Part shown: piece by piece, positions 18,803-56,254 of the stretch
Position numbering within the stretch: position 1 is the stretch's first letter
How the letters are laid out: the number at the start of each line of letters is the position of its first letter
Assembly: GCA_949282305.1 (NCBI GenBank)
Contig: CASDPB010000128.1
Location: 51,885 to 115,884, forward strand
Source: an uncultured Lentisphaeria bacterium
Lineage (GTDB): Bacteria; Verrucomicrobiota; Lentisphaeria; Victivallales; UBA1829
Direction of reading: 5' to 3'
Length of the DNA: 64,000 nt
The notes under the pieces: model-generated
What the model saw: the letters and a program-made list of their open reading frames with translations, nothing else
The model's database searches: none
Told to the model about the DNA's origin: nothing
Position numbers and translations under genes: made by a program

Positions 18803-19405
18803 ATGAAACAGCCGGAAGTCAGTTGGAGCATTCGGGGAGGAGCGGTCGTGAAGGATCTGACGGTTTCCACTTTAAGACGCCGTGTTGCGGTTTCCGCCCT
18901 GAATATGCGCGGACTGCTGGACAAAGTGCGCGGGCTTCCTTTCGGGGCGCCGGTTTCGTATGATGATTTCCGGCGCGGCGGCGAACAGGTGAAAAGCGCA
19001 ATTCTCGGCGCAGTCGCGGCATATTATGATGCGGATGCCGTGCCGTCCTCTTCCACGGCTCTCATTGCGTGGGGACGCGGCGGCGCGTTTCCGGAAAACC
19101 GGCTCTACTGGAGCGACTACGCTGAAAACGGACGTGACGCCGGACGCGCTCATCTCTTTGTCGGGACTCTGCCGACGATTCCTCTGTGCGAGGCGGCGAT
19201 TGCGCTGAATCTGAACGGTCCGGGGTATTATCTGGACTGTCCGCCGGAGGATTTGCGGGAAGAGATCGGGGAGATATTGAGCGATCCGTCCCTTGACGGA
19301 CTTCTGCTTCTGATGCGTTCCGGCGTGAAAACGAGTGTGTTTTACCTTGTGCACGGCATGACTTCCCCTGCGGACGTGAAAACGCTGGAGGAGGCATTGG
19401 AATGA
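18803..19405 (+). CDS. Beta-ketoacyl synthase N-terminal-like protein lacking the active-site Cys
   Basis: LFVGTLPTIPLCEAAIALNLNGPGYYL resembles the KS segment preceding the catalytic Cys, but the ACxSG motif is absent. AAAGGAG lies upstream. The stop overlaps the next start (ATGA). Confidence 0.6.
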   Translation: MKQPEVSWSIRGGAVVKDLTVSTLRRRVAVSALNMRGLLDKVRGLPFGAPVSYDDFRRGGEQVKSAILGAVAAYYDADAVPSSSTALIAWGRGGAFPENRLYWSDYAENGRDAGRAHLFVGTLPTIPLCEAAIALNLNGPGYYLDCPPEDLREEIGEILSDPSLDGLLLLMRSGVKTSVFYLVHGMTSPADVKTLEEALE

Positions 19406-20724
19406 AAATCCTTCTTGCCGCCTCCAATACCTGTACGGATCCTTATCCCGTTTATCCGCTTGGCATGAGCGTGGTTGCGCAGGCGCTCGCCGCCGCCGGG
19501 CACGATGTGAAGCTGTTCGACGTCGCCATGAGCGGACTGGATGCCTTGCCGGAAATGATTCGTTCCTTTTCTCCGGAAGCCGTCGGCATTTCCATCCGCA
19601 ATCTGGATTCGGTCAACAGCCGCACGCCCGGACAGGATTTCCTGCGTATGCCCGTTGCGATGGCGGAGACCATCCGGAGGCAGACGGATGTGCCGCTGAT
19701 TCTGGGCGGTTCCGGCTTCTCCCTTCTGCCGGAGGAGATTCTGAAGCTGACCGGTGCGGATTACGGAGTGATCGGAGAGGGTGAGTCCGCAATGACGGAA
19801 CTGATCTCAGTTCTGGCGCGCGGCGGAAAACCGGAATCCCGTCTGATCCGCGGAAGCGGTGGAGTCCAGAGCGGCGCCCTGTATCAGAAGAATATCCGTG
19901 ACTATTACTGCCGGCAGACTCATATCCTGCCGCTCCAGACGAAGCGCGGATGCCCGTTTCACTGTGTTTACTGCACCTATCCGGCGCTGGAAGGACATTC
20001 CATGCGTCTGCGCGATCCCGTCGAAGTGGCGGAGCAGCTTGAGGCGCTCGCGGCGGAACTGCCTGAGGTGATGTTTTATTTCGTGGACGCGGTGTTCAAT
20101 GATCCCGCGCGGGAGTATCACAGGCTTCTGAAGGAGATGGAACGGCGTTCCCTGAGCGTGCCGTTTGCGGCGTTTCTCACTCCCGGCGGACTGAATGCGG
20201 AGGATCTGGATCTGCTCTGTTCCCGCGGCATGATTGCGGCGGAGCTGGGGATTGACGGCGCGACGGATGAAACTTTGGGCGGGCTCGGCAAGAATTTTGA
20301 TTTCGGCACTGCCGCGCGTGTGTGCCGTGAACTGCTCGCGCGGAAGGTCGGAGTCACCGCCAATGTCATGTTCGGCGGTCCGAATGAAACGTGGGAGACG
20401 GTCCGGCGCGGAATCGGGAACCTGCGTTCGATTGAACCCGTTCATACGCTGGTTTTTTCCGGTATCCGCATCCTGCCGCATACGCCGCTGTTCGCGCTTG
20501 CGAAAAAGGAAAATGCGGTGCCGCCTGACTGGAACGGGCGCGATGAGATTTACTATTATGCGCCCGGCATTGAGCCGGAGCGTCTGCACCGGGAACTCTG
20601 CGAGGGATTTGCTTCAAGTTCCTGCTGCATCTATCCGCCGCACGCCTGCAACGGCTCCCTGAAGGCACTGCACAGATTCGGCTATGCGAACTACCGGAAG
20701 CTGACGGGAGGAAATGCCGGATGA
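19402..20724 (+). CDS. B12-binding-domain radical SAM protein
   Basis: N-terminal Rossmann-like B12 domain (KILLAASN...YPLGMSVVAQAL...) and a CxxxCxxC motif (RGCPFHCVYCTYP). Confidence 0.9.
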   Translation: MKILLAASNTCTDPYPVYPLGMSVVAQALAAAGHDVKLFDVAMSGLDALPEMIRSFSPEAVGISIRNLDSVNSRTPGQDFLRMPVAMAETIRRQTDVPLILGGSGFSLLPEEILKLTGADYGVIGEGESAMTELISVLARGGKPESRLIRGSGGVQSGALYQKNIRDYYCRQTHILPLQTKRGCPFHCVYCTYPALEGHSMRLRDPVEVAEQLEALAAELPEVMFYFVDAVFNDPAREYHRLLKEMERRSLSVPFAAFLTPGGLNAEDLDLLCSRGMIAAELGIDGATDETLGGLGKNFDFGTAARVCRELLARKVGVTANVMFGGPNETWETVRRGIGNLRSIEPVHTLVFSGIRILPHTPLFALAKKENAVPPDWNGRDEIYYYAPGIEPERLHRELCEGFASSSCCIYPPHACNGSLKALHRFGYANYRKLTGGNAG

Positions 20725-21884
20725 AAAAGGTCTGGTGCGTGATTCCCGTCTATAATAATGCGGCGACTGTTCATGCGGTTGTGCGGCAGTGTCTGCGGGA
20801 ACTGCCGGATGTGCTTGTCGTGGACGACGGCAGCACGGATGCGGATCTGGCGGCGTTCTATGCGTCCTCCCATGTGACGGTGCTTCGCAATGAGGTGAAC
20901 CGCGGAAAAGGCGCTGCGCTCCGGCGTGCGGCGGAATATCTTGCTTCGCTCGGGGCGGACTATATGATAACGCTCGACGCCGACGGGCAGCATTTTCCCG
21001 AAGACATCCGCGCGTTCCTGCCGCTGATCGAGGCGAATGAACATGCCGTGATCGTGGGATGCCGGGATTTCAATACGGAAAACGTCCCGGAGTCTAGCCG
21101 CTTCGGACGTTCTTTCGCCAACTTCTGGATGAGGGTGGAAACGGGAATTCAGGTGGATGACTGCCAGAGCGGTTTCCGCGCGTATCCCGTGAAATACATC
21201 GTGCAGCTGAAGTGCATCTCCGACCGTTACGGGTATGAGACGGAGCTCCTGACCCGTTCCGCATGGGCGGGTCTGGATATTCTCAGCGTGCCTGTCCGCG
21301 TCTATTATCCGCCGCGCGGAAAGCGCATCTCGCATTTCCGTCCGTGGCTGGATAACTTCCGCCTGTCGTGTCTGCATACGCATCTGGTCGGTCTGCGTCT
21401 CCTGCCGTATCCGAAAAAGACGCTGGTGAAGAGGAAGATTCCGCTTTCGATCTTCCGTCCGAAGGAGTTGTTTACTGCCCTGCTGAAAGAGAACGCCACG
21501 CCGGAGGGGCTCGCCTCCTCTGCGGCGGTCGGGACCTTTCTTGCCGTGCTGCCGATTCCCGGTTTTCACATTGCGGCGATTGTCTATTTCACCCAGCGTT
21601 TTCATTTGAACAAGATTATGGCGCTTCTGATCCAGCATCTTTTCATGCCGCCGCTGTCGCCGTTCCTCTGCATTGAGCTCGGACACTATTTCATACATCG
21701 GCGCTGGCTGACGACGCTGACCTTCCGGACTGTGGTGATTGAGATGCCGCACCGGTTGTGGGAGTGGTTTCTCGGAAGTCTCCTGCTTGCACCCTTCTGG
21801 GCGGTGGTGATCTGGTTTGCCACATTTGCCGCGGTGAACTTCTTCAAGCGCCGGAAAGAGGTGAAGGAAGGAGGCGGGGCATGA
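20721..21884 (+). CDS. Family-2 glycosyltransferase fused to a DUF2062-like membrane domain
   Basis: VIPVYNNAATV, VVDDGSTD and LDADGQH are GT-A DxD features. The C-terminal ~140 aa are hydrophobic. ATGA overlaps occur at both ends. Confidence 0.85.
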   Translation: MKKVWCVIPVYNNAATVHAVVRQCLRELPDVLVVDDGSTDADLAAFYASSHVTVLRNEVNRGKGAALRRAAEYLASLGADYMITLDADGQHFPEDIRAFLPLIEANEHAVIVGCRDFNTENVPESSRFGRSFANFWMRVETGIQVDDCQSGFRAYPVKYIVQLKCISDRYGYETELLTRSAWAGLDILSVPVRVYYPPRGKRISHFRPWLDNFRLSCLHTHLVGLRLLPYPKKTLVKRKIPLSIFRPKELFTALLKENATPEGLASSAAVGTFLAVLPIPGFHIAAIVYFTQRFHLNKIMALLIQHLFMPPLSPFLCIELGHYFIHRRWLTTLTFRTVVIEMPHRLWEWFLGSLLLAPFWAVVIWFATFAAVNFFKRRKEVKEGGGA

Positions 21885-22774
21885 CCTCCTCCCGTAAAAA
21901 CCTGAGCGATTCGCGCGGGAATGCGCTCGGAATCGGAATCTTTCTTTTTTTCCTGCGCACACTGGGGATCAACCGTGCCTGTGAACTGGTCTGGCTGATT
22001 TCTCTTTTCTATGCTCTGTTCGACCGGACGGCGTGCCGTGCCGCATCCCACTACCTGAAACGGCGTTTCCCCCGCGCGGAGCGCATCGCGATGTTCCGCC
22101 ATACCTGGGCACTGTTTACGAATCAGGGGCAGGCGTTGATCGAAACCCGCGCGATGGGTGCGGGGAAACTGAAGTGGCGTTTTGAAAACGACGGTGTGGT
22201 CCGCGAGCTGATCTACGGGCAAAAGGGACTGATCCTGCTGGCGTCCCACTTCAGCTGCTGGCAGGCTTTGATCGGAGGGCTCGGAGAATTCCGCCGTCCG
22301 GTGAATTTTCTGGTGGCGCCGGACGCGAACCTGAATGTGGACAAGTTCGCCGCCGCCGGAAAACTGCACGTGCCGATCCGCGTGATTTCAACTCTTGAGC
22401 CAATGGGGGGGCTTGTGGAGGCGGCGGAGGCTCTGGAGCGCGGGGAGGCGGTCTGCATGATGGGGGACCGCTGTTTCGAGGGGGAGGGGGCGCATGTTGA
22501 GTTTCTCGGAGAGGAGGCGGTGTTTCCCTACGCCGCATTTTACCTTGCGGCGCGCTGTTCATGTCCGGTGCTTCCGCTGTTCGCGGTGCGGGAGAAGGCT
22601 CATACGTCGTTCACCGTCCGCTACGGAAATGCGATTTTCCCGCAACTGTCCGGACGCCGCCGCAGTGATTTGACTCCGTATGTTCAGGAATATGTGTCCG
22701 AACTGGAAAACATGGCGAATCAGCATCCGTACCGCTGTTTTCTCTTTGAAAATATCTGGAACTCCGGAAAATGA
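21881..22774 (+). CDS. Lysophospholipid/lipid A-type (LpxL/HtrB-like) acyltransferase
   Basis: N-terminal TM segment, then a LILLASHFSCWQAL block at the position of the LpxL HxxxxE/D motif, here apparently with Gln. The start at 21881 overlaps the upstream stop. Confidence 0.7.
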   Translation: MTSSRKNLSDSRGNALGIGIFLFFLRTLGINRACELVWLISLFYALFDRTACRAASHYLKRRFPRAERIAMFRHTWALFTNQGQALIETRAMGAGKLKWRFENDGVVRELIYGQKGLILLASHFSCWQALIGGLGEFRRPVNFLVAPDANLNVDKFAAAGKLHVPIRVISTLEPMGGLVEAAEALERGEAVCMMGDRCFEGEGAHVEFLGEEAVFPYAAFYLAARCSCPVLPLFAVREKAHTSFTVRYGNAIFPQLSGRRRSDLTPYVQEYVSELENMANQHPYRCFLFENIWNSGK

Positions 22775-22862
22775 GGCGGAAGAACTTTGCTTTTTGCCGG
22801 GGAGACGCTATATTCCCTTATTTCTGCTGCTTGAAACTTGCAACTTGGAACTTGAAACACAG

Positions 22863-24029
22863 ATGAATGAAGTATATATCAGCGGTGCGGGGTGTATTTC
22901 CGCGGCGGGCGACGGATGGGAGGAATCCGCTTCCGGACTCTATGCGGATGGCGGTGCTGTGCCGCTTCCTCCGTCGGAAAGAATCGGCTCCACGCTTGCG
23001 ACTCCTGTTTTTGAGCTGACGGAATTTGATCCGGGAAACGAGTCGAAAAGCATGGCGTTTCTGCATCATGCCCTGAAAGAAGCGCTGGATTCCGCCGGGC
23101 TTTCCGCCGGGGAGCTCCAGGGGAAAAATGTCTGCGTTTCAATAGGCACGACGGTTTCCTGCCAGCTTAACAATATTCCGTTCTACGCCAGGCTGCGTTC
23201 CGGGACGGTGGACTCCTGGGAGCCGCTTCGGAATTTTTTTGCATCGAATCCGTCGGAGAGCATCCGGCGCGAATACGGCCTGAGGGGTCCCGTCCTGACA
23301 GTTTCCAATGCGTGTGTGTCAGGGGCGGACGCGATTGCCCTGGCGTATCTGAACGTTGCGTCCGGAGTGTGCGATCTTGCGATTGCGGGCGGCGTCGATG
23401 AATTGAACCGTGTCCCCATTGCCGGATTCAACGCGCTCGGCGTCGCTTCGCCGGAGCCATGCCGTCCGTTTGATGAAAGACGCAGAGGTTTGAATCTGGG
23501 CGAGGGGGCGGGAATCGTGATTCTGGAAAGCGGTGCGTCGCTTGAAAAACGGAAGCACCGGGCAAAATTTGTGCTCGAAGGCATCGGCTGTGCCGGGGAC
23601 GCCTATCATATCACCGCGCCGCATCCCGACGGACGCGGGCTTGAGCGCGCCGTGATGACCGCCTTGCGGCTCACGGGGCTTTCCGCTTCGGATATTGCCT
23701 TTGTGAACGCCCACGGGACGGGAACGGAGAACAACGATCTCTGCGAATCCTCGCTTCTGGCGAGAGTGTTCGGGCGCGGTGTCCGCTATCTGTCCACGAA
23801 GGGACGCACCGGGCATACGCTTGCCGCCGCCGGCGCTCTGGAACTGATTTTCACTTTAATCATGCTGGAGCGCGGAGCGGTTCCGGCGAGTTGCGGATTT
23901 GAGGTGAAACCGGAAAACATTCCCGTGGCGCCGGTATCGGAACTGACGCCGTTCACGGGAACTCATGCGATGTCCACTTCGCTGGCATTCGGCGGATGCA
24001 ATACTGCGCTGATCGCGGGGAGGGTGTGA
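22863..24029 (+). CDS. Beta-ketoacyl-ACP synthase (KAS I/II-type, Cys-His-His)
   Basis: SNACVSGADAI (Cys), YHITAPHP (His) and NAHGTGT (His). The start MNEVYISGAG at 22863 is preferred over the long upstream extension. Confidence 0.9.
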   Translation: MNEVYISGAGCISAAGDGWEESASGLYADGGAVPLPPSERIGSTLATPVFELTEFDPGNESKSMAFLHHALKEALDSAGLSAGELQGKNVCVSIGTTVSCQLNNIPFYARLRSGTVDSWEPLRNFFASNPSESIRREYGLRGPVLTVSNACVSGADAIALAYLNVASGVCDLAIAGGVDELNRVPIAGFNALGVASPEPCRPFDERRRGLNLGEGAGIVILESGASLEKRKHRAKFVLEGIGCAGDAYHITAPHPDGRGLERAVMTALRLTGLSASDIAFVNAHGTGTENNDLCESSLLARVFGRGVRYLSTKGRTGHTLAAAGALELIFTLIMLERGAVPASCGFEVKPENIPVAPVSELTPFTGTHAMSTSLAFGGCNTALIAGRV

Positions 24030-24031
24030 GT

Positions 24032-24667
24032 ATGCGGATTCTCAAATGCGCGACCGTGACGGAGTTTTCCGACGCAACATTTCAGGCGGTGCGGAAACAA
24101 TATTCGCTCCGCCGTTCGGATCGTTACACCGCGCTGGTTCTGGCGGCTGCCGGAAAAGTGCTGGACGCCGTACCGGACGTTTCCGGAGATACGGGCGTGA
24201 TTGTAGCCAGCTCGTTCGGACCGCATCGCACGACCTGCGCGTTTCTTGACGACCTGCTGGATTACCGTGAGGAGGATGTGATGCCGACGACGTTCTCCCA
24301 TTCGGTTCACAATGCCGCCGCCTCCTATGCCGCGTCGGCTTTCGGTCTCCGCGGCCCTGAATTCACGCTGACAGGATTCGAGAATCTTTTCTACGAGGCT
24401 CTGCGGACCGCGGAGCTCTGTGGCATCCTGTGCGCCCGGATGCTGGTCGTGAGCGTGGAGGAAAACGCGCTGATGACGGAGGCGATCGCAAACCATGTGC
24501 GCCGGATTCCGCCGGAAGGCGCCGCCGCGTTCCTGGTCTCTCCGGGAGAGAGCGGGGACGAGCTGATTTTTCAGGAGGAAGCGCCGGAACTGACGCCTTT
24601 TGAACTGGCGGAACGGATCAGGAACAATCAGACACCGGTTTATTTCGGGAAAGGAAGAAGAATATGA
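24032..24667 (+). CDS. Beta-ketoacyl synthase N-terminal-like protein without catalytic Cys (chain-length-factor-like)
   Basis: VIVASSFGP...FSHSVHNAAASYAASAFGLRGPEFTLTGFENL follows the KS N-domain pattern, but the ACxS position reads GFEN. The gene starts 2 nt after the KS stop. Confidence 0.7.
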   Translation: MRILKCATVTEFSDATFQAVRKQYSLRRSDRYTALVLAAAGKVLDAVPDVSGDTGVIVASSFGPHRTTCAFLDDLLDYREEDVMPTTFSHSVHNAAASYAASAFGLRGPEFTLTGFENLFYEALRTAELCGILCARMLVVSVEENALMTEAIANHVRRIPPEGAAAFLVSPGESGDELIFQEEAPELTPFELAERIRNNQTPVYFGKGRRI

Positions 24668-24909
24668 CTGCTGACGAGGTGAAATGCGGGCTCCTGCGGG
24701 AGATTTCCGCGATTACGGGGAGAGAGGAGGCAACGCTTTCCGCGGAGTGTTCCCTTGCGGAGAACGGAATTGACTCCATGGGTTTTGTGGAACTCCTGCT
24801 TTCGGTGAAGCGTCTTTACGGCGTGAATCTTGTGGACGCGGGGCTCCGCAGCGCGGATGTGAAAAGCGTTGCCGCGCTTGCGGAAAAAATTTGTGAAACC
24901 GGAAAATGA
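24664..24909 (+). CDS. Acyl carrier protein
   Basis: 81 aa with GIDSMGFVELL (a DSx phosphopantetheine attachment motif). ATGA overlaps occur at both ends. Confidence 0.85.
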   Translation: MTADEVKCGLLREISAITGREEATLSAECSLAENGIDSMGFVELLLSVKRLYGVNLVDAGLRSADVKSVAALAEKICETGK

Positions 24910-26150
24910 AACACTATCTTGACGGCTTTGATTATGTCGCGGCAATGTTGAATTACGACTGCCGGAATACGCCGGGGCGCGGGAATCATTTTCTCGTCGT
25001 GCTGGAGCTGGAAACTGCGCCGGGAAAAACGGAACTGGCGGAACGGCTTGCCGTATTGGAACCCTTCCTGCCGTTCTTTTCCGGCAGGATGCGCCGCAGC
25101 CGTCTTCATGCCGCCCCATACTGGATGCCGGGAGAGCCGCGCGGAATCCGGATTGCCGGGGGAATGGAACTTGGTTCTTACCTGAATACGCCGCTTGACG
25201 GCGCTCTGGAGGTGATGCTTCTGGAACAGGAGCCGCGTCATTTTCTGGTATTCAAGTTCAGTCATCTGCTGTTCGACGGGCGGGGCGCGGAACTGTTGAT
25301 CGAAGCGGTGCGCAGCGGCGATGCTTCGATGCTCGCCGGAGAGATCGGGCTCTCTTCCCCGAAACTCAACGAGTGGGGACACCAGTTCCGCTGCGGGCGT
25401 CAGGTGCAGAGGAAGATGATCTCCTTTGCCGCCGCCGGCGAGATTGCCGGTACGCAGTCGGACGGAATCTCCGCGAACAGGTATGCGCTTCTTTCCTTTT
25501 CACGGGAAAAGACCGGCATGATTACCCTCTGCAGTGATGAGAAAGCCGGACCGTTCCAGCTGACGCCGTTTCTGCTTTCGCTGCTTTGCCGAAGTTACGC
25601 CCGGCTGCTGGATGATCTGCCGGTTCCGGGAAATATCCTGATTCCGATGTCCGTTGATCTGCGCGGGCGCGCCGGAATTGCGCGCAATGCCGTGTTCTTC
25701 AACCAATGGAGTCTCCAGCCCCTGCTGGTGCCGCGTGAATTATGCGGGAATCCGGAAGCGGTATTCGCGGAACTCAAAGGACAGATTTTCGAGAACATGT
25801 CCGAACAGCTTCCGCAGGCGTTCCGTGCCGCGTCGCGGCTCGGGCGCATTGCCCCGTTCCCGCTCCTGATATCGATTGTGAATAAAACGAGACGGACAGC
25901 CTGCGGCACATTCATGTACTCTTTTCTGCCGGAAAGTTCCCTGAGGTCGAATGATTTCTGCGGACACCGGATTCTGAATTTGTATCATATTCCAACCATG
26001 CCGCCCGTAACGGGGGCGGGGGTCTTCATGAACAGTTTCGGCGGTGCGCTGAACGTAACACTGTCTTATCGGGAAGACAGCCTGACATCGAATGCCGTCC
26101 GCAGCTTCATCTCTTCGTTTATATCGTCTTTGCCGAAGGAGACACCATGA
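24906..26150 (+). CDS. Stand-alone condensation-domain-like / WS-DGAT-PapA5-like acyltransferase (HxxxDG)
   Basis: FKFSHLLFDGRGAELL lies about 120 aa from the N-terminus, in a 414-aa protein of C-domain size. Confidence 0.55.
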   Translation: MKHYLDGFDYVAAMLNYDCRNTPGRGNHFLVVLELETAPGKTELAERLAVLEPFLPFFSGRMRRSRLHAAPYWMPGEPRGIRIAGGMELGSYLNTPLDGALEVMLLEQEPRHFLVFKFSHLLFDGRGAELLIEAVRSGDASMLAGEIGLSSPKLNEWGHQFRCGRQVQRKMISFAAAGEIAGTQSDGISANRYALLSFSREKTGMITLCSDEKAGPFQLTPFLLSLLCRSYARLLDDLPVPGNILIPMSVDLRGRAGIARNAVFFNQWSLQPLLVPRELCGNPEAVFAELKGQIFENMSEQLPQAFRAASRLGRIAPFPLLISIVNKTRRTACGTFMYSFLPESSLRSNDFCGHRILNLYHIPTMPPVTGAGVFMNSFGGALNVTLSYREDSLTSNAVRSFISSFISSLPKETP

Positions 26151-27556
26151 ATATCTATGAAACGATCCGCCGCGAAATCGGGGAATATGACGGAATTGCC
26201 GTGATTGACCGCGGACAGGAGTTTTCTTATCACGCTTTGTTTCATGATGCGGATTCTCTGAGCGCCCGGTTGCGGGAGTCCGGCGTTGCCGCTTTCGCTC
26301 GTGTCGGGCTGCTTGCCGATGATTCTTATGAGTATATTGCCGTGAGTCTTGCCGTGCTGTCGCTGAATGCGGCGCTTGTTCCGCTCTCCACCCGCGCCGC
26401 GGAATCGGAACGGGAAAGAATGCCCGGGGAACTGGAGCTGAATTTTCTTCTCGTTTCGGAACCTTGCCGGAAAGAAGGTGATCGGCCTCTTTTACTCGGG
26501 CTTTTTCTGCGTGTTCTGAAAAAAGAGATACGGAAAATTGAACTTCCGGAAGGACGTGTGCCGGCGTTCATCCGTTTTTCCTCGGGGACGACCGGCGGAA
26601 GCAAGGGGGTTGTGCTGTCCCATCGCGCCGTGATTGAACGTACCTCGGCATGTGTCGGGCTCGGCGTGACACGCGGCGAATATGTGTTCTGGGTGCTGGA
26701 TATGGCATTTCATTTTGTGGTGACGATTCTCCTGTTTCTGCGGAAAGGCGCCGTGATCGTGATCTGCGGGCAGCCGCTGATTGAAAAGATGCCCGAGGCG
26801 TTCCGGCGTTATCCTTTGAATCTGCTTTACGCCACGCCGTATCATTACAGGCTGATGACGCATTCGGATGATTTTACGCCGCCGATGCTGGCGCGGACAA
26901 GGCAGGCGTTTTCGACGGCGATGAAACTGGAGACTGCCGACGCGGAGGCTTTCCGCGCGAAATTCGGTCTGCCGCTGACACAGGCATACGGCATCATTGA
27001 GGTCGGACTGCCCTGCATCAACACCTCCGGCATACGGGAGAAAGCGGACTCCGCCGGGCGGATTCAGGACGCTTACCGGATCGAGATCCGGGAACCGGAT
27101 GACAGCGGAATCGGTTCCATTCTGATTCGCGGTCCCGGAATGTTTGACGCATATCTTGAGCCGTTCCGCCTGAGAACGGAGCTTTTCCCGGACGGCTGGT
27201 TCCCGACCGGAGATCTGGGGTATGTGGATGCGGACGGCTATCTGTTCATTGTCGGGCGCTCGAAAAATGTGATTAATTTCGCCGGCATGAAAATTTTCCC
27301 GTATGAGGTGGAGAGCGTGCTTCATGAGCATCCGTATGTCAGAGAGTCGCGCGTGAAGGGGATGCCGTATCCCGGATTCGGCGAGGTGCCGGTCGCGGAG
27401 ATCGTGCTCCGGGAAAACGCGGAACTTCCGAAAGACTGGCGCACGGAGCTCCGGCGCTGGTGTTTCCGCCGTCTTGCGGAATATAAAGTTCCGAAAGATT
27501 TCAGCATTGTGGAGTCCCTGCCGCATACCGCAAGCGGAAAACTGATCCGCAGGTAG
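26147..27556 (+). CDS. AMP-dependent synthetase/ligase (fatty acyl-AMP or acyl-ACP ligase-like)
   Basis: FSSGTTGGSKGV, YGIIE, PTGDLGYVDADGYLFIVGRSK, and the terminal SGKLIR lysine. Confidence 0.9.
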   Translation: MNIYETIRREIGEYDGIAVIDRGQEFSYHALFHDADSLSARLRESGVAAFARVGLLADDSYEYIAVSLAVLSLNAALVPLSTRAAESERERMPGELELNFLLVSEPCRKEGDRPLLLGLFLRVLKKEIRKIELPEGRVPAFIRFSSGTTGGSKGVVLSHRAVIERTSACVGLGVTRGEYVFWVLDMAFHFVVTILLFLRKGAVIVICGQPLIEKMPEAFRRYPLNLLYATPYHYRLMTHSDDFTPPMLARTRQAFSTAMKLETADAEAFRAKFGLPLTQAYGIIEVGLPCINTSGIREKADSAGRIQDAYRIEIREPDDSGIGSILIRGPGMFDAYLEPFRLRTELFPDGWFPTGDLGYVDADGYLFIVGRSKNVINFAGMKIFPYEVESVLHEHPYVRESRVKGMPYPGFGEVPVAEIVLRENAELPKDWRTELRRWCFRRLAEYKVPKDFSIVESLPHTASGKLIRR

Positions 27557-52733: not shown

Positions 52734-53114
52734 TCATTGCCTTTCCGATTCCACGCCGCTTGCGGCGGAGGAGTTCATTTTCCGCAGGAGTTCTTCAATC
52801 GCGGGCGTTACGGTGAGACAGATGCGCCGCCGGTCCGTCTCGCTGTTTTTTCTTTCAAGAAAACCTTTTCTGCAAAGAGAGTCCACCAGCGCGGACGCTC
52901 CGCCCGCCGTGATTCCCATGAATGCGGCGGTTTCCGAAAGGGAACATCCCGGATGCGTCCGGACATAATGGCAGAGCTGGAGCGTCTTGATTGCGGAATG
53001 AGGGAAGGGGGAGCCTTCCCCTGAGTGCCGTTTCAGGAAAAGGCTCCATTCCCGGTAGATTTTCCGGTATGTCTGAAAGAATTTTTCGGGAGTGATTGTT
53101 TTATTGTTCCGCAT
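52734..53114 (-). CDS. MarR-family transcriptional regulator, last gene of the RND operon
   Basis: IKTLQLCHYVRTHPGCSLSETAAFMGITAGGASALVDSLCRKGFLERKNSETDRRRICLTVT is the MarR wHTH. The start at 53114 overlaps the RND gene end by 14 nt. Confidence 0.8.
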   Translation of the reverse strand: MRNNKTITPEKFFQTYRKIYREWSLFLKRHSGEGSPFPHSAIKTLQLCHYVRTHPGCSLSETAAFMGITAGGASALVDSLCRKGFLERKNSETDRRRICLTVTPAIEELLRKMNSSAASGVESERQ

Positions 53115-56100
53115 GGCTTTCTGTCCGCCCGCTCCACTGCTTGACCTTTTCCCGCGCCTTCTGGAAGACTGCGAACATGGGCGGGATGAATGCGATGCCG
53201 ATGACCGTCGCGGCAAGCATTCCCCAGAATGTTGTGGTTCCGATGACGCGGCGGCTTTCCGCGCCGGCGCCGGATGCGAACAGGAGCGGCAGGACGCCGA
53301 TGACGAAGCTCCATGCTGTCATGAGAACCGCGCGGTAACGGTAGTTCGCGCCGTTGATCGCCGCTCTGGCAATGGATTTTCCGGCAATGCGCTCCTGCAT
53401 GGAGAACTCCACCATGAGGATTGTGCTTTTCGCGCACAGTCCGATCAGCATGATGAGTCCGAGCTGTGCGTAAATATCAAGCAGCATCCCCGTGAGATAG
53501 AGTGCCGTGATGCCGCCCAGCGAGGCGAACGACACCGAAAGAATGACCGGCAGCGGAATCGTCCAGGACTCATATTGCGCAACAAGGAAGAGATAGCCGA
53601 AAATGACGGCGAGCGTCATCAGCAGAACAATCCGTCCGCTGTTGTTCTTCTCCTGATAACTCATATCCGTCCAGCTGACGTCATACTCGTTGGAGAATTC
53701 CGTCCGGACCAGTTTCTCAATCCTGTCCATGATTCTGGCTGTGGAGGCTCCCGGAGCGGGAATTGCGGTAATGACCGCCGCCAGATTCTGGTTGAACCGT
53801 TCGATTTTCCGTGCGCCGAGCATGACTCTGGCTTCCACAAACGCGTTCAGCGGCACCATTTCGCCGGAATTGTTCTGAATGAGAAGCTCGTCAAGCGCGT
53901 CCAGAGTGGAACGTTCCTCCCCATCCAGCTGAATCTTGACTTTGAATGAGTAGCCGTAGAGATTGAAGTCGTTGACATACAGGCTTGCAAAGTTGCTCTG
54001 CAACGCTGTGAAGATCCGGTCGGTCGGCACGCCGAGCGCTTCCGCCTTGGTCCGGTCAATATCAAGGTAAATCTGCGGCGTGCGTGCGCTGAACCCGCTG
54101 AACGCATACAGAATCTCCGGCATGACTTTTTTATCGTTCAGCAGTCCGAGCAGTTTTCCCATTTGCCGTTCAAACTGCTGAGGGGTGTCTTCTCCCGTGG
54201 TGCGCAGGGCGAAAGTCACGCCTCCGCTTACGCCGAGTCCCATGATCGCGGGCGGCTGGAACACGCGGACTTCAGCCGACGGGATAGTGGCTCCCGCAGC
54301 CATGATTTTATCCCGGATGCTGTTGATCGAAAGTTCCGGGGTCTTTCTCTGATCCCAGTCCTCCAGCGTGATGATCGCAAATCCAAGGTTTTCGCTGGAG
54401 CCGCTCATGATGGAATAGCCCGCCACCGTGATGATTTCACGGATGCCGGGGATTTTCTGGGCTTTGTCATTGAAGGATTTCATCGCCTTGATGGTGCGTT
54501 CCAGCGCCGCCCCTTCCGGCAGTTCCAGCTCGCACATCAGCACTCCCTTGTCCTCGCTCGGCAGGAAGCCGCCCTTCAGACTTTTCAGAATCCAGGCGTC
54601 GGCGGCAAGAACCGCGCCGATCAGCAGAAAGGTGAGGATGAGCCGTCTGAGCAGGAAACGGGATATTGTGATGTATCCTTTTTTGGTGGTGTCAAGGGAA
54701 ATGTCAAACCAGCGGAACAGGAGGAACTTTCTTTTCTCCTCATTGCCGGCGGGTTTGAGAATCAGGGAGCAGAGCGCGGGGCTCAGCGTCAGGGCATTGA
54801 ATGCCGAGATGCACAGGGCGATGCACATTGTGACTGCAAACTGCATGTAGATGGTGCCGACGATCCCGCCGTAGAAGGCGATCGGCGCATAAATTGCGAC
54901 TGTGACAAGTGTCGTGGCGATGACCGGGCCCGTGATCTGGCGCATGCTTTTCACCGTCGCTTCCCGCGGCGGCAGCTTTTCTTCCTCAATGATGCGCATG
55001 GTATTTTCCACGACGACAATGGCGTCGTCCACCAGCGAGCCGATGACCAGGATCAGCCCGAACATGGTCAGCACGTTGATGGAGTAGCCGAGCACCTCCA
55101 TGAAGAAGAAGGTGCCCAGGAGCGAGACCGGTATGGCGAGCGCCGGCACCAGTGTTGCACGCCAGTCCTGAAGAAAGATGAAAGTGATGGCAACGACCAG
55201 GATCAGCGTCAGGATCAGTGTTTCGGCGATTTCCTTGATGTTGACCATGATGTAGTTCGTGGGATCGTAGGAGATGAAACCTTCGACGCCTTCAGGGAAA
55301 CGCTGGCGCAGTTCATCCAGGAGCTTGTTGGCGTTTCTTACCACTTCTACCGCATTTGCGCCGTCCTGACGGTAGATCGCCATTGCCACGCACGGTTCTC
55401 CGTTGAAGAAGCCTTCGTCGGAATAAAGTTCCGCCCCGAGTTCGAGGCGTGCGATGTCGCTCAGCGTGACCTCTTCCCCGCGGGAACCGGTGGCGACCAC
55501 TATTTTTCCGAATTCCTCTTCGGTTTTCAAGCGTCCGGTCACATCCAGTTTGAGCTGAAGATAGGGGCTTGACTTTTCTCCGCCGATGGCGCCCGCTGCC
55601 ACAGGAGTGTTCTGCGAGGTGAGTTTGGATATGACGGTTTCCGGCGTCAGATTCAGTGCCGACATTTTCAGCGGATCCAGCCATACCCTCATGCTGTAAT
55701 TGCGTTCCCCGAGGATTTCAACGGTTCCCATGCCGGGCAGACGTGCGAACGGGTCCTTGACATTCATGCGGACGTAATTGGCGAGCTGGAGCTGCGAGAG
55801 TACCTTGCCGTTGGTGCGGAACACATACACCCCGATCATGTCCGTCTGCTGCTTCTTGGTGACAAGCCCGATCTGGATGACCGCGTCCGGCAGCTGCGAT
55901 TCCGCCTGCTGGACGGCATTCTGCACGTTCACCTGTGCGATGTCCGAATCGGTGCCGGGCGCAAAGGTGAGCGTCAGAGTGTAGTTGCCGTTGTTGTCGC
56001 TTTCGGATTTGAAATAAAGCAGGTCTTCGATGCCGTTCACCTGTTCCTCAATTACGCTGGCGACTGTTTCCGAGATGACCTGCGATGTGGCGCCGGGATA

Positions 56101-56247
56101 CTGTGCTGTGACTTTGACCGTGGGCGGAGCGATTTCAGGATATTCCGCGATGGGGAGCCGGTAAAGACACAGAAGCCCGATGAGAATTGTCACTACGGAA
56201 ATGACAAAGGCGAACTTCGGACGCCGGATGAAAATTTCTGCAAACAT
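53101..56247 (-). CDS. RND-family (AcrB/HAE1-type) efflux transporter
   Basis: 1048 aa starting MFAEIFIRRPKFAFV, with 12-TM/two-large-loop organisation. Confidence 0.95.
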   Translation of the reverse strand: MFAEIFIRRPKFAFVISVVTILIGLLCLYRLPIAEYPEIAPPTVKVTAQYPGATSQVISETVASVIEEQVNGIEDLLYFKSESDNNGNYTLTLTFAPGTDSDIAQVNVQNAVQQAESQLPDAVIQIGLVTKKQQTDMIGVYVFRTNGKVLSQLQLANYVRMNVKDPFARLPGMGTVEILGERNYSMRVWLDPLKMSALNLTPETVISKLTSQNTPVAAGAIGGEKSSPYLQLKLDVTGRLKTEEEFGKIVVATGSRGEEVTLSDIARLELGAELYSDEGFFNGEPCVAMAIYRQDGANAVEVVRNANKLLDELRQRFPEGVEGFISYDPTNYIMVNIKEIAETLILTLILVVAITFIFLQDWRATLVPALAIPVSLLGTFFFMEVLGYSINVLTMFGLILVIGSLVDDAIVVVENTMRIIEEEKLPPREATVKSMRQITGPVIATTLVTVAIYAPIAFYGGIVGTIYMQFAVTMCIALCISAFNALTLSPALCSLILKPAGNEEKRKFLLFRWFDISLDTTKKGYITISRFLLRRLILTFLLIGAVLAADAWILKSLKGGFLPSEDKGVLMCELELPEGAALERTIKAMKSFNDKAQKIPGIREIITVAGYSIMSGSSENLGFAIITLEDWDQRKTPELSINSIRDKIMAAGATIPSAEVRVFQPPAIMGLGVSGGVTFALRTTGEDTPQQFERQMGKLLGLLNDKKVMPEILYAFSGFSARTPQIYLDIDRTKAEALGVPTDRIFTALQSNFASLYVNDFNLYGYSFKVKIQLDGEERSTLDALDELLIQNNSGEMVPLNAFVEARVMLGARKIERFNQNLAAVITAIPAPGASTARIMDRIEKLVRTEFSNEYDVSWTDMSYQEKNNSGRIVLLMTLAVIFGYLFLVAQYESWTIPLPVILSVSFASLGGITALYLTGMLLDIYAQLGLIMLIGLCAKSTILMVEFSMQERIAGKSIARAAINGANYRYRAVLMTAWSFVIGVLPLLFASGAGAESRRVIGTTTFWGMLAATVIGIAFIPPMFAVFQKAREKVKQWSGRTESHAEQ

Positions 56248-56254
56248 GGCACCC

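Follow-up and report, generated by a model that had tools for sequence, protein, structure and literature searches.

Nine genes, all on the plus strand, occupy 8.8 kb (18803-27556) of the window, as we call the whole 64,000-nucleotide stretch of the uncultured Lentisphaeria contig CASDPB010000128.1. Numbered g1 to g9 in 5' to 3' order (Table 1), they form a module A (g1, the radical S-adenosylmethionine (SAM) enzyme g2, the GT2 glycosyltransferase g3 and the LpxL-like acyltransferase g4) and a module B (the ketosynthase (KS) g5, the chain length factor (CLF) g6, the acyl carrier protein (ACP) g7, the condensation-like (C-like) acyltransferase g8 and the AMP-ligase g9). The cluster fits best as a reduced variant, specific to Lentisphaerota, of the uncharacterised aryl-polyene/ladderane superfamily. 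With a confidence that we would put at about even, it is a lineage-reduced member of the aryl-polyene/'ladderane-type' envelope-lipid family, whose modules would make a tailored acyl chain and a glycolipid anchor; judged by analogy, the most likely product would be such a chain esterified to a glycosylated envelope lipid. We draw on the genes present, their folds and catalytic motifs, the homology of some to ApeJ and ApeO, membership of TIGR04072, synteny, a gene fusion and purifying selection. A preliminary description of this DNA had held that the product cannot be predicted; a class-level prediction is now possible, although the structure is still not predictable.

The same description had placed the cluster near aryl-polyene and 'ladderane-associated' gene neighbourhoods, and the enzymes of both modules agree with this. 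g2 scores 469.4 bits against TIGR04072, the NCBIfam family 'lipid biosynthesis B12-binding/radical SAM protein' (residues 2-429 on model positions 1-434 of 443), and is a member of this equivalog because its score exceeds the 360-bit cutoff. It has an N-terminal B12-binding domain (PF02310, 67.5 bits) and a radical SAM domain (PF04055, 59.7 bits), with the CX3CX2C motif present as CPFHCVYC. After TIGR04072, the families that match it best are those of methyltransferases (BzaD and the Trp 2-C-methyltransferase). Methylation is what most characterised B12 radical SAM enzymes carry out; we know of no TIGR04072 member with a demonstrated function. According to a 2026 review, the role of the anammox radical SAM enzyme is still hypothetical, and radical SAM modification of fatty-acyl lipids has been proposed only for ladderanes and jawsamycin (PMC13459092).

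We also compared the cluster proteins by BLAST with those of the E. coli CFT073 ape cluster. g3 aligns with residues 8-230 of ApeJ, in its N-terminal half (37% identity, E 4e-34), and g4 with residues 261-550, in the C-terminal half (25% identity, E 1e-13); since each matches one half, the two genes amount to a split ApeJ. Genetic evidence implicates ApeJ in the addition of N-acetylgalactosamine (GalNAc)-phosphate to the lipid, and the enzyme has been proposed to add GalNAc and then to acylate it with the ACP-bound chain (bioRxiv 10.1101/2020.12.19.423268; PMC8253772). A Xenorhabdus apeJ mutant accumulates a lipid intermediate without GalNAc, and the final Xenorhabdus product is a glycerol-phosphate-GalNAc lipid carrying the polyene (bioRxiv 10.1101/2020.12.19.423268). 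g5 is a complete KS, with Cys, two His and Lys aligned with those of ApeO and ApeR; it matches ApeO (32.5% identity, E 4e-55) better than ApeR, and its PDB matches include 9s5h_B (the best, E 8e-55) and 6qsp_A (E 3e-47). The aryl-polyene core set comprises the KS genes apeO/R, the ACP genes apeE/F, the CLF gene apeC, the dehydratase (DH) genes apeI/P, the ketoreductase (KR) gene apeQ and the transporter gene apeM (Grammbitter et al.). The window has an ApeO-type KS (g5), ApeC-type CLFs (g6 by PF13723, g1 by its fold) and an ACP (g7). BLAST of g6 against ApeC gave no match, so only Pfam, profile and fold evidence likens g6 and g1 to ApeC; g6 also has weak matches to AmcG and 7f28_A.

Table 1. 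Genes of the nine-gene cluster and associated features, with positions in the window
Feature	Position	Strand	Basis
g1, 200-aa half-size thiolase/KS-like protein (ApeC/CLF-like)	18803..19405	+	AlphaFold2 (AF2) model and Foldseek
g2, B12-binding radical SAM enzyme	19402..20724	+	TIGR04072, PF02310 and PF04055, CPFHCVYC
g3, GT2 with C-terminal DUF2062 membrane domain	20721..21884	+	PF00535 and PF09835
g4, LpxL/HtrB-family acyltransferase with HX4Q	21881..22774	+	PF03279
g5, elongating KS, Cys-His-His, ApeO-like	22863..24029	+	PF00109 and PF02801
g6, 211-aa half-size CLF-like protein (Ketoacyl-synt_2) without active-site Cys	24032..24667	+	PF13723, 32 bits
g7, ACP, Ser in GIDSMGF (DSM)	24664..24909	+	PF00550
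g8, 414-aa stand-alone condensation/PapA5/WS-DGAT-like acyltransferase	24906..26150	+	AF2 and Foldseek, FSHxLFDG
g9, ANL-superfamily adenylating ligase, putative ACP loader	26147..27556	+	PF00501 and PF13193
88-nt spacer between modules A and B	22775..22862	+	three AACTTG repeats, no Shine-Dalgarno sequence
Promoter-like site TTGAAT-16-TATATT	18754..18781	+	66-nt gap before g1; consensus match only

To find relatives, we scanned GTDB species representatives with a g8 profile and mapped the other cluster parts by tblastn in the resulting 32 loci (loci from this and the other searches carry an L label below). About 30 are from Lentisphaerota (several labelled 'uncultured bacterium') and two from Verrucomicrobiota (Terrimicrobiaceae and Chthoniobacter). 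The recurrent core is KS-CLF-ACP-g8-ligase, with g9 just 3' of g8 in most loci having sequence past g8. In at least 8 of the 32 loci this core is contiguous with g1-radical SAM-GT2-LpxL, and thioesterase (TE)-KS and MMPL genes often precede; the gene order, which the preliminary description had proposed to look for in other genomes, recurs. The cluster proteins share ~92% identity with those of the Lentisphaeria metagenome-assembled genome (MAG) UBA11452 and 83-92% with those of the Lentisphaeria MAG HRGM_Genome_2866.

Lentisphaerota relatives carry LolA, MMPL, TE, KS, KR and PDH-like genes, again in keeping with the aryl-polyene/ladderane placement. In the rumen MAG L005, genes for a PaaK/ApeH-like ligase, a SPASM radical SAM protein, LolA, MMPL, TE and KS are followed by all nine window genes in order, and L058 has TE-KS and then the nine genes. 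Oligosphaera ethanolica DSM 24202 (L009) begins with a SPASM radical SAM protein, MMPL, a 4HBT thioesterase, KS, a g1-like protein and a second B12-like protein, and continues with radical SAM, GT2-DUF2062, LpxL-like, ACP, KS, CLF, a short-chain dehydrogenase/reductase (SDR) ketoreductase and a phytoene-desaturase-like flavoenzyme. MMPL and LolA both occur among the relatives L005, L009, L076, L085 and L088. Compared with these loci, the window's lineage appears to have lost the thioesterase, second KS, LolA and MMPL that its relatives keep. Many relatives also have a ~260-aa protein without a Pfam match after the ligase or directly after g8 (for example L051 12715-13512, L055 12729-13511 and L056 12193-12981), which is missing in the window.

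The best single piece of evidence for cooperation between modules A and B comes from outside the phylum. Among 1.84 billion representative proteins, the g8 profile picked out 829 relatives at E<=1e-3, of which 197 reach E<=1e-30, and the ACP-g8-ligase triad was kept in the sampled contexts. L053 reads ACP-KS-CLF-ACP-g8-FAD oxidoreductase-ligase. In the metagenome contig L054 the order is B12-like, radical SAM, GT2-DUF2062, LpxL, ACP and KS, and, further on, ACP, g8, FAD oxidoreductase, radical SAM and ligase; in L055, ACP-g8-ligase adjoins KR, PDH-like and KS genes. L056 is an ApeI/ApeP/LolA-type cluster in which a B12 radical SAM gene is directly followed by one for a 731-aa fusion protein (P0093, 10001-12196). 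The N-terminal part of P0093 is LpxL-like, 42% identical to g4 and reads HFGPWQ; its C-terminal part is g8-like, 29% identical to g8 and reads HRLFDG (HxxxDG). Because the two are fused, LpxL-like and C-like acyltransferases probably act on the same molecule, and the modules would hence cooperate.

Two of these loci, the distantly related metagenome loci L053 and L054, have a further gene adjoining the ACP-g8-ligase module: a PabBC-like fusion (Chorismate_bind and Aminotran_4, an aminodeoxychorismate synthase/lyase) at L053 14876-16681 (minus strand) and L054 19739-21332. This hints at a 4-aminobenzoate starter in both. No PabBC was found in the window or in any Lentisphaeria locus compared, so this starter stays only a lead.

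The nine domain labels of the preliminary description all stand, on Pfam and NCBIfam matches or, for g1 and g8, on structure prediction and Foldseek. g8 has no Pfam or NCBIfam match in the window; some homologs carry precomputed PF06974 (WS_DGAT_C) matches, weak wherever a strength is given. Single-sequence PDB searches with g1, g6 and g8 returned nothing useful, and the profile of alignment A1 gave only one weak TRI3 match in the PDB. The AF2 model of g8 (pLDDT 92.4, pTM 0.93) shows the two lobes of a CAT-like fold, with HxxxDG at their interface. Foldseek found 331 PDB matches at E<=1e-3, with all top matches (E 9e-20 to 1e-15) in the condensation superfamily: AzeD, C and Cy domains of nonribosomal peptide synthetases (NRPSs), TRI3, BAHD enzymes and PapA5 (1q9j, E 1.4e-15). 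The FSHxLFDG motif is invariant, with H120, D124 and G125 unchanged in 25 sequences. As an ANL ligase g9 is complete, including the C-terminal lysine motif; its nearest solved relatives (MenE, oxalyl-CoA ligase and feruloyl-CoA ligase, ~1e-35) say little about its substrate. We tried g9 as an ApeH ortholog and dropped it, as BLAST gave no match to ApeH.

The least secure of the nine labels is that of g1, which has no Pfam or NCBIfam match. Its AF2 model (pLDDT 82.6) resembles the N-terminal half of a FabF-type KS, and Foldseek matches it to FabF/KS chains and the half-size CLF ApeC (7f28, 6qsp_B) at E 5e-5 to 4e-3 and TM ~0.45. In hhalign, the g1 and g6 families align in the same register (E 0.002). 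The preliminary description called g1 Cys-less, which holds for the position of the KS nucleophile but not for the whole protein: Cys129, in the motif TLPTIPLCEAAIAL..GP, is kept in g1 and all 14 aligned homologs, in the helix before the conserved GP. A KS gene lies directly 5' of the g1-like gene in L003, L004, L005, L009 and L058, and tblastn places one upstream of g1 in L062, L064, L065, L076, L086 and L088; in L085, a further KS gene sits downstream of module B, rather than upstream of g1. Among the compared loci, only the window's own lineage (UBA11452) is missing this second KS gene from the g1 locus. The ratio of nonsynonymous to synonymous substitution rates (dN/dS) of g1, at 0.26, is the highest of the nine genes and yet still shows constraint. 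On these comparisons, the window's g1 may be an orphan without its usual KS partner and, because it is still constrained, one KS may now serve two CLF-like partners.

For g4 (PF03279 at 66.1 bits, cutoff 22.3), the preliminary description had read HFSCWQ where an acidic residue is expected. This reading is real: the motif aligns to HFGTWE of Acinetobacter LpxM (5kn7). The Gln of HX4Q is present in every Lentisphaeria ortholog and in L007, L051, L054 and the L056 fusion; Glu is retained at this position by the Bacteroidota relative L014 and by E. coli ApeJ. Since the Gln is shared by orthologs and g4 is constrained (dN/dS 0.15), HX4Q is a subfamily trait under selection. In PatA, a member of the same acyltransferase family, the acid is supplied by a distant residue, and loss of g4 activity therefore does not follow from HX4Q.

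The layout of the cluster agrees with the translational coupling described earlier. Reading the junctions directly, we found 4-nt ATGA overlaps at six (19402, 20721, 21881, 24664, 24906 and 26147) and a 2-nt gap between g5 and g6 (24029/24032). The eighth junction, g4/g5, is the 88-nt spacer, given a KS start at ATG 22863. The longest KS open reading frame (ORF) opens at 22680, inside g4; family models align only from its residue 62-65, and we placed the start of g5 at 22863 because these models and ApeO begin aligning there. A Shine-Dalgarno sequence is visible for the other eight genes (weak for g8). The three AACTTG repeats (cttgaAACTTGcAACTTGgAACTTGaaacacagATG) close the spacer right before the g5 start and are kept in UBA11452, where the spacer is ~90% identical; the spacer may be a regulatory or translation-initiation element. 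Promoter and terminator scans say nothing firm about transcription units, because the numbers of sites in the region were not above the shuffled expectation; neither Rfam nor tRNA scans found anything in the window. Co-transcription and the 'stoichiometric expression' claimed for the nine genes are what we infer from this layout. All nine genes are intact, and dN/dS values of 0.10-0.26 against the 92%-identical UBA11452 demonstrate purifying selection.

Gene content suggests a scheme whose substrates, step order and radical SAM chemistry we infer. g9 would adenylate a carboxylic acid starter and load it onto the dedicated ACP g7, and g5, paired with g6 (or possibly, alternatively, with g1), would extend the chain with malonyl units. 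Reduction steps, if any, would be borrowed from the housekeeping type II fatty acid synthase (FAS II). g2 would then act on an unactivated carbon of the chain, methylation being the simplest possibility. Meanwhile, g3 would put a sugar or sugar-phosphate on a membrane glycerolipid and g4 would acylate the glycolipid from acyl-ACP, the two together playing the role of fused ApeJ. g8 would transfer the ACP-bound chain to an acceptor with a hydroxyl or an amine, so that g4 and g8 would provide two acyl transfers from ACP. The product predicted from this scheme is an envelope glyco(phospho)lipid bearing several acyl groups. With neither a dedicated KR nor a DH, the chain is unlikely to be a conjugated polyene; it would be either short and keto-containing or fully reduced by FAS II.

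A more specific version of this scheme is tentative, and we would hold it possible rather than probable: that the TIGR04072 enzyme, the HX4Q LpxL-like protein and a stand-alone C-like acyltransferase family with its own ACP and ligase together make, in Lentisphaerota of the gut and rumen, a new class of acyl glycolipid tailored by radical SAM chemistry (methyl-branched or C-C cross-linked), with one KS shared by g6 and g1.

Several points weigh against a reduced aryl-polyene/ladderane-type cluster. The ORFs of the 64-kb window that we scanned hold no KR, DH, enoyl reductase (ER), FabD, phosphopantetheinyl transferase (PPTase), MMPL or LolA, and Pfam scans of them found no FabA/FabZ-type dehydratase and no SDR. 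By tblastn, the MMPL, TE, KSa, second radical SAM, KR (from L009), PDH-like and 265-aa proteins of relatives had no match in the window. Pfam scans showed no second AMP-binding gene in the window, with the ApeH-like gene of L005 outside the tblastn query set. The lack of reductive, malonyl-loading and PPTase genes noted in the preliminary description is thus borne out, and because of it the chain chemistry depends on unseen housekeeping genes; there is no exporter either. g4 has no acidic partner for the HX4(D/E) dyad, and g9 is not an ApeH ortholog, its substrate being unreadable from sequence. No member of the cluster's subfamily has a known product, and we found no paper linking this cluster type to a metabolite; nothing usable turned up in the literature on TIGR04072, Lentisphaerae ladderane biosynthetic gene clusters or PDB 9s5h. 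Lastly, several genomes (L052, L067, L070 and others) have module B and no module A.

Because module B occurs alone, the two modules could serve different products, B making a small metabolite acylated on N or O (such as an acyl-amide or a beta-keto-acyl conjugate) and A modifying an envelope glycolipid. We consider this unlikely, though it has the most in its favour of the alternatives. In L052, L067 and L070, module B sits among unrelated genes, and L055 has the bare ACP-g8-ligase triad; the fold of g8 is that of NRPS C domains, which make amides; and the 88-nt spacer, with a weak terminator-like hairpin inside it (22799-22818), falls exactly at the seam between two modules that also occur apart. 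However, the A+B order is kept in Lentisphaeria loci and in one metagenome contig (L054), and g4-like and g8-like domains share one protein in L056. The window also holds no ACP of module A's own, and with functionally separate modules g4 must therefore use g7 or a housekeeping ACP.

Remodelling of lipid A or lipopolysaccharide is a good deal less probable. Here g4 would be a secondary LpxL-type acyltransferase adding an unusual chain that comes from module B, and g3 would add a sugar via polyprenyl-phosphate, as ArnC does. In its favour, g4 is a PF03279 protein that can be aligned with LpxM, g3 comes nearest among NCBIfam families to polyprenyl-phosphate sugar synthases (PpgS, AglJ and ArnC, all below cutoff), and lipid A has been raised as a possible aryl-polyene anchor (PMC8253772). 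However, the best LpxL equivalog score of g4 is 46 bits against a cutoff of 248, HX4Q departs from the HX4(D/E) dyad of LpxL and LpxM, window scans found no other lipid A genes near the cluster, and the one solved anchor of the cluster family is glycerophospholipid-GalNAc. A genuine aryl-polyene pigment or cyclobutane-lipid ladderane cluster is very improbable: the ApeO-, ApeC- and ApeJ-like proteins and the TIGR04072 'ladder' radical SAM enzyme would fit it, as would the SPASM radical SAM, phytoene-desaturase-like and KR genes that relatives share with anammox clusters (PMC2649909), but ApeH, ApeR, ApeI/P, ApeQ and ApeM are absent, a conjugated polyene needs a dedicated KR and DH, amxFabZ, a PDH-like enzyme and a full-length mutant FabF are likewise absent, and ladderanes are known only from anammox Planctomycetota (PMC9902471).

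Upstream of the cluster lie three successive HlyD/RND-adaptor-like genes (14388-18736; 262, 465 and 721 aa), the third in fusion with an intramembrane metalloprotease of the HExxH type, whose likeness to the daptide maturation protease (NF041824) reaches 150 bits against a cutoff of 300. The preliminary description saw in this HlyD/M50 cassette a replacement for the exporter genes; LolA and MMPL are indeed absent and the cassette does stand in that position, but an exporter role is unsupported. No ABC or RND pump gene adjoins it, and of the loci compared, only that of the window's own lineage (UBA11452) has it beside the cluster. Given this lineage-only adjacency and the likeness to proteases of the daptide type, a kind of ribosomally synthesised and post-translationally modified peptide (RiPP) system, we set the exporter idea aside; the cassette looks like a separate RiPP/daptide-type protease-adaptor unit. 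Further upstream, a FatA/B-type acyl-ACP thioesterase gene (13359-14129) starts 4 nt past the stop codon of leucyl-tRNA synthetase, an odd pairing. It could supply free fatty acids to g9, and we found no tie to the cluster. A YbaK deacylase gene follows g9 downstream. The only RND pump seen in the window is of the AcrB type (minus strand; 1048 aa, 958 bits), ~25 kb from the cluster, and is probably an unrelated multidrug efflux pump; downstream of it on the minus strand is an unannotated 596-aa ORF, the two lying within 53101-58045. No LolA-family match lies near the cluster, and the remaining window genes are housekeeping genes and regulators.

What makes the cluster useful is its compactness: nine genes, an apparently self-contained set, from a relative of human-gut Lentisphaeria MAGs. 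Without dehydratases, reductases or exporters, reconstitution should meet fewer complications. The cluster ties a TIGR04072 enzyme to ApeJ-like lipid-anchoring chemistry, and it exposes an unnamed acyltransferase family of 829 representatives whose window member matches no Pfam or NCBIfam model. Repeated 'ladderane-type' calls in phyla outside the anammox bacteria remain unexplained (PMC9902471). If the product is a radical-SAM-tailored glycolipid, this would be the smallest tractable system for the action of a 'ladderane-type' B12 radical SAM enzyme on a fatty-acyl chain. Expression of the cluster, if achieved, could reveal what this radical SAM family does and bring to light a new class of envelope lipid in a gut phylum about which little is known.

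Four known systems invite comparison. The cispentacin set AmcB/AmcF/AmcG/AmcH likewise has an ACP, a loader that forms adenylates and a KS paired with a short CLF-like protein. However, all NCBIfam matches are below cutoff (AmcF 217 bits against 325; AmcG 16; AmcB 28), and the window lacks AmcC/D/E-type enzymes and has lipid-anchoring genes. In the mycobacterial FadD-Pks-Pap-MmpL lines (phthiocerol dimycocerosates (PDIM), sulfolipid-1 and polyacyltrehalose), the carrier is loaded by an adenylating enzyme, elongation falls to a KS, and the chain then passes from the carrier to a polyol or sugar through a stand-alone HxxxDG acyltransferase. The window cluster shares this logic of loading, extension and offloading, with g8 resembling PapA5, and its relatives have MMPL transporters; the mycobacterial lines differ in using type I polyketide synthases, as opposed to discrete type II proteins here, show no orthology at the sequence level, and belong to another phylum with another envelope.

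Anammox ladderane Cluster I (KustE3603-3608) and non-anammox antiSMASH 'ladderane' clusters have in common with the window a TIGR04072 radical SAM enzyme, an ACP and a KS/CLF-type pair; with the window's relatives they also share SPASM radical SAM, phytoene-desaturase-like and KR genes (PMC2649909, PMC10139942, bioRxiv 10.64898/2026.05.19.726425). By Pfam scans and tblastn, though, the window has neither amxFabZ nor the PDH-like desaturase of Cluster I, and in place of the FabF2/mutant FabF pair, whose CLF is a full-length mutant FabF, it has half folds of 200-211 aa. It adds GT2, LpxL-like, C-like and ligase genes, and its host is one of the Lentisphaeria rather than an anammox bacterium.

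The fourth comparison is with the aryl-polyene clusters of E. coli CFT073 and Xenorhabdus doucetiae (apeA-R). The cluster proteins gave no BLAST match to the ApeI/P dehydratases or the ApeQ ketoreductase, and the window is also without ApeB, ApeD, ApeG, ApeR, the ApeH-type (PaaK-like) ligase and ApeK-N, which include the LolA-like ApeL and the MMPL/RND transporter ApeM. In the window, ApeJ is split into two genes, the GT2 carries DUF2062 and HX4Q stands for HX4E; the B12 radical SAM enzyme, the C-like g8 and an unrelated ANL ligase are extras. Shared with the aryl-polyene clusters are a type II KS with a half-size CLF, a dedicated ACP, an adenylating loader and a GT2 and LpxL-like pair resembling the halves of ApeJ, and relatives in the phylum keep LolA, MMPL and a 4HBT thioesterase. 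For module A, the ApeJ work in Xenorhabdus is the only analogy anchored in experiment.

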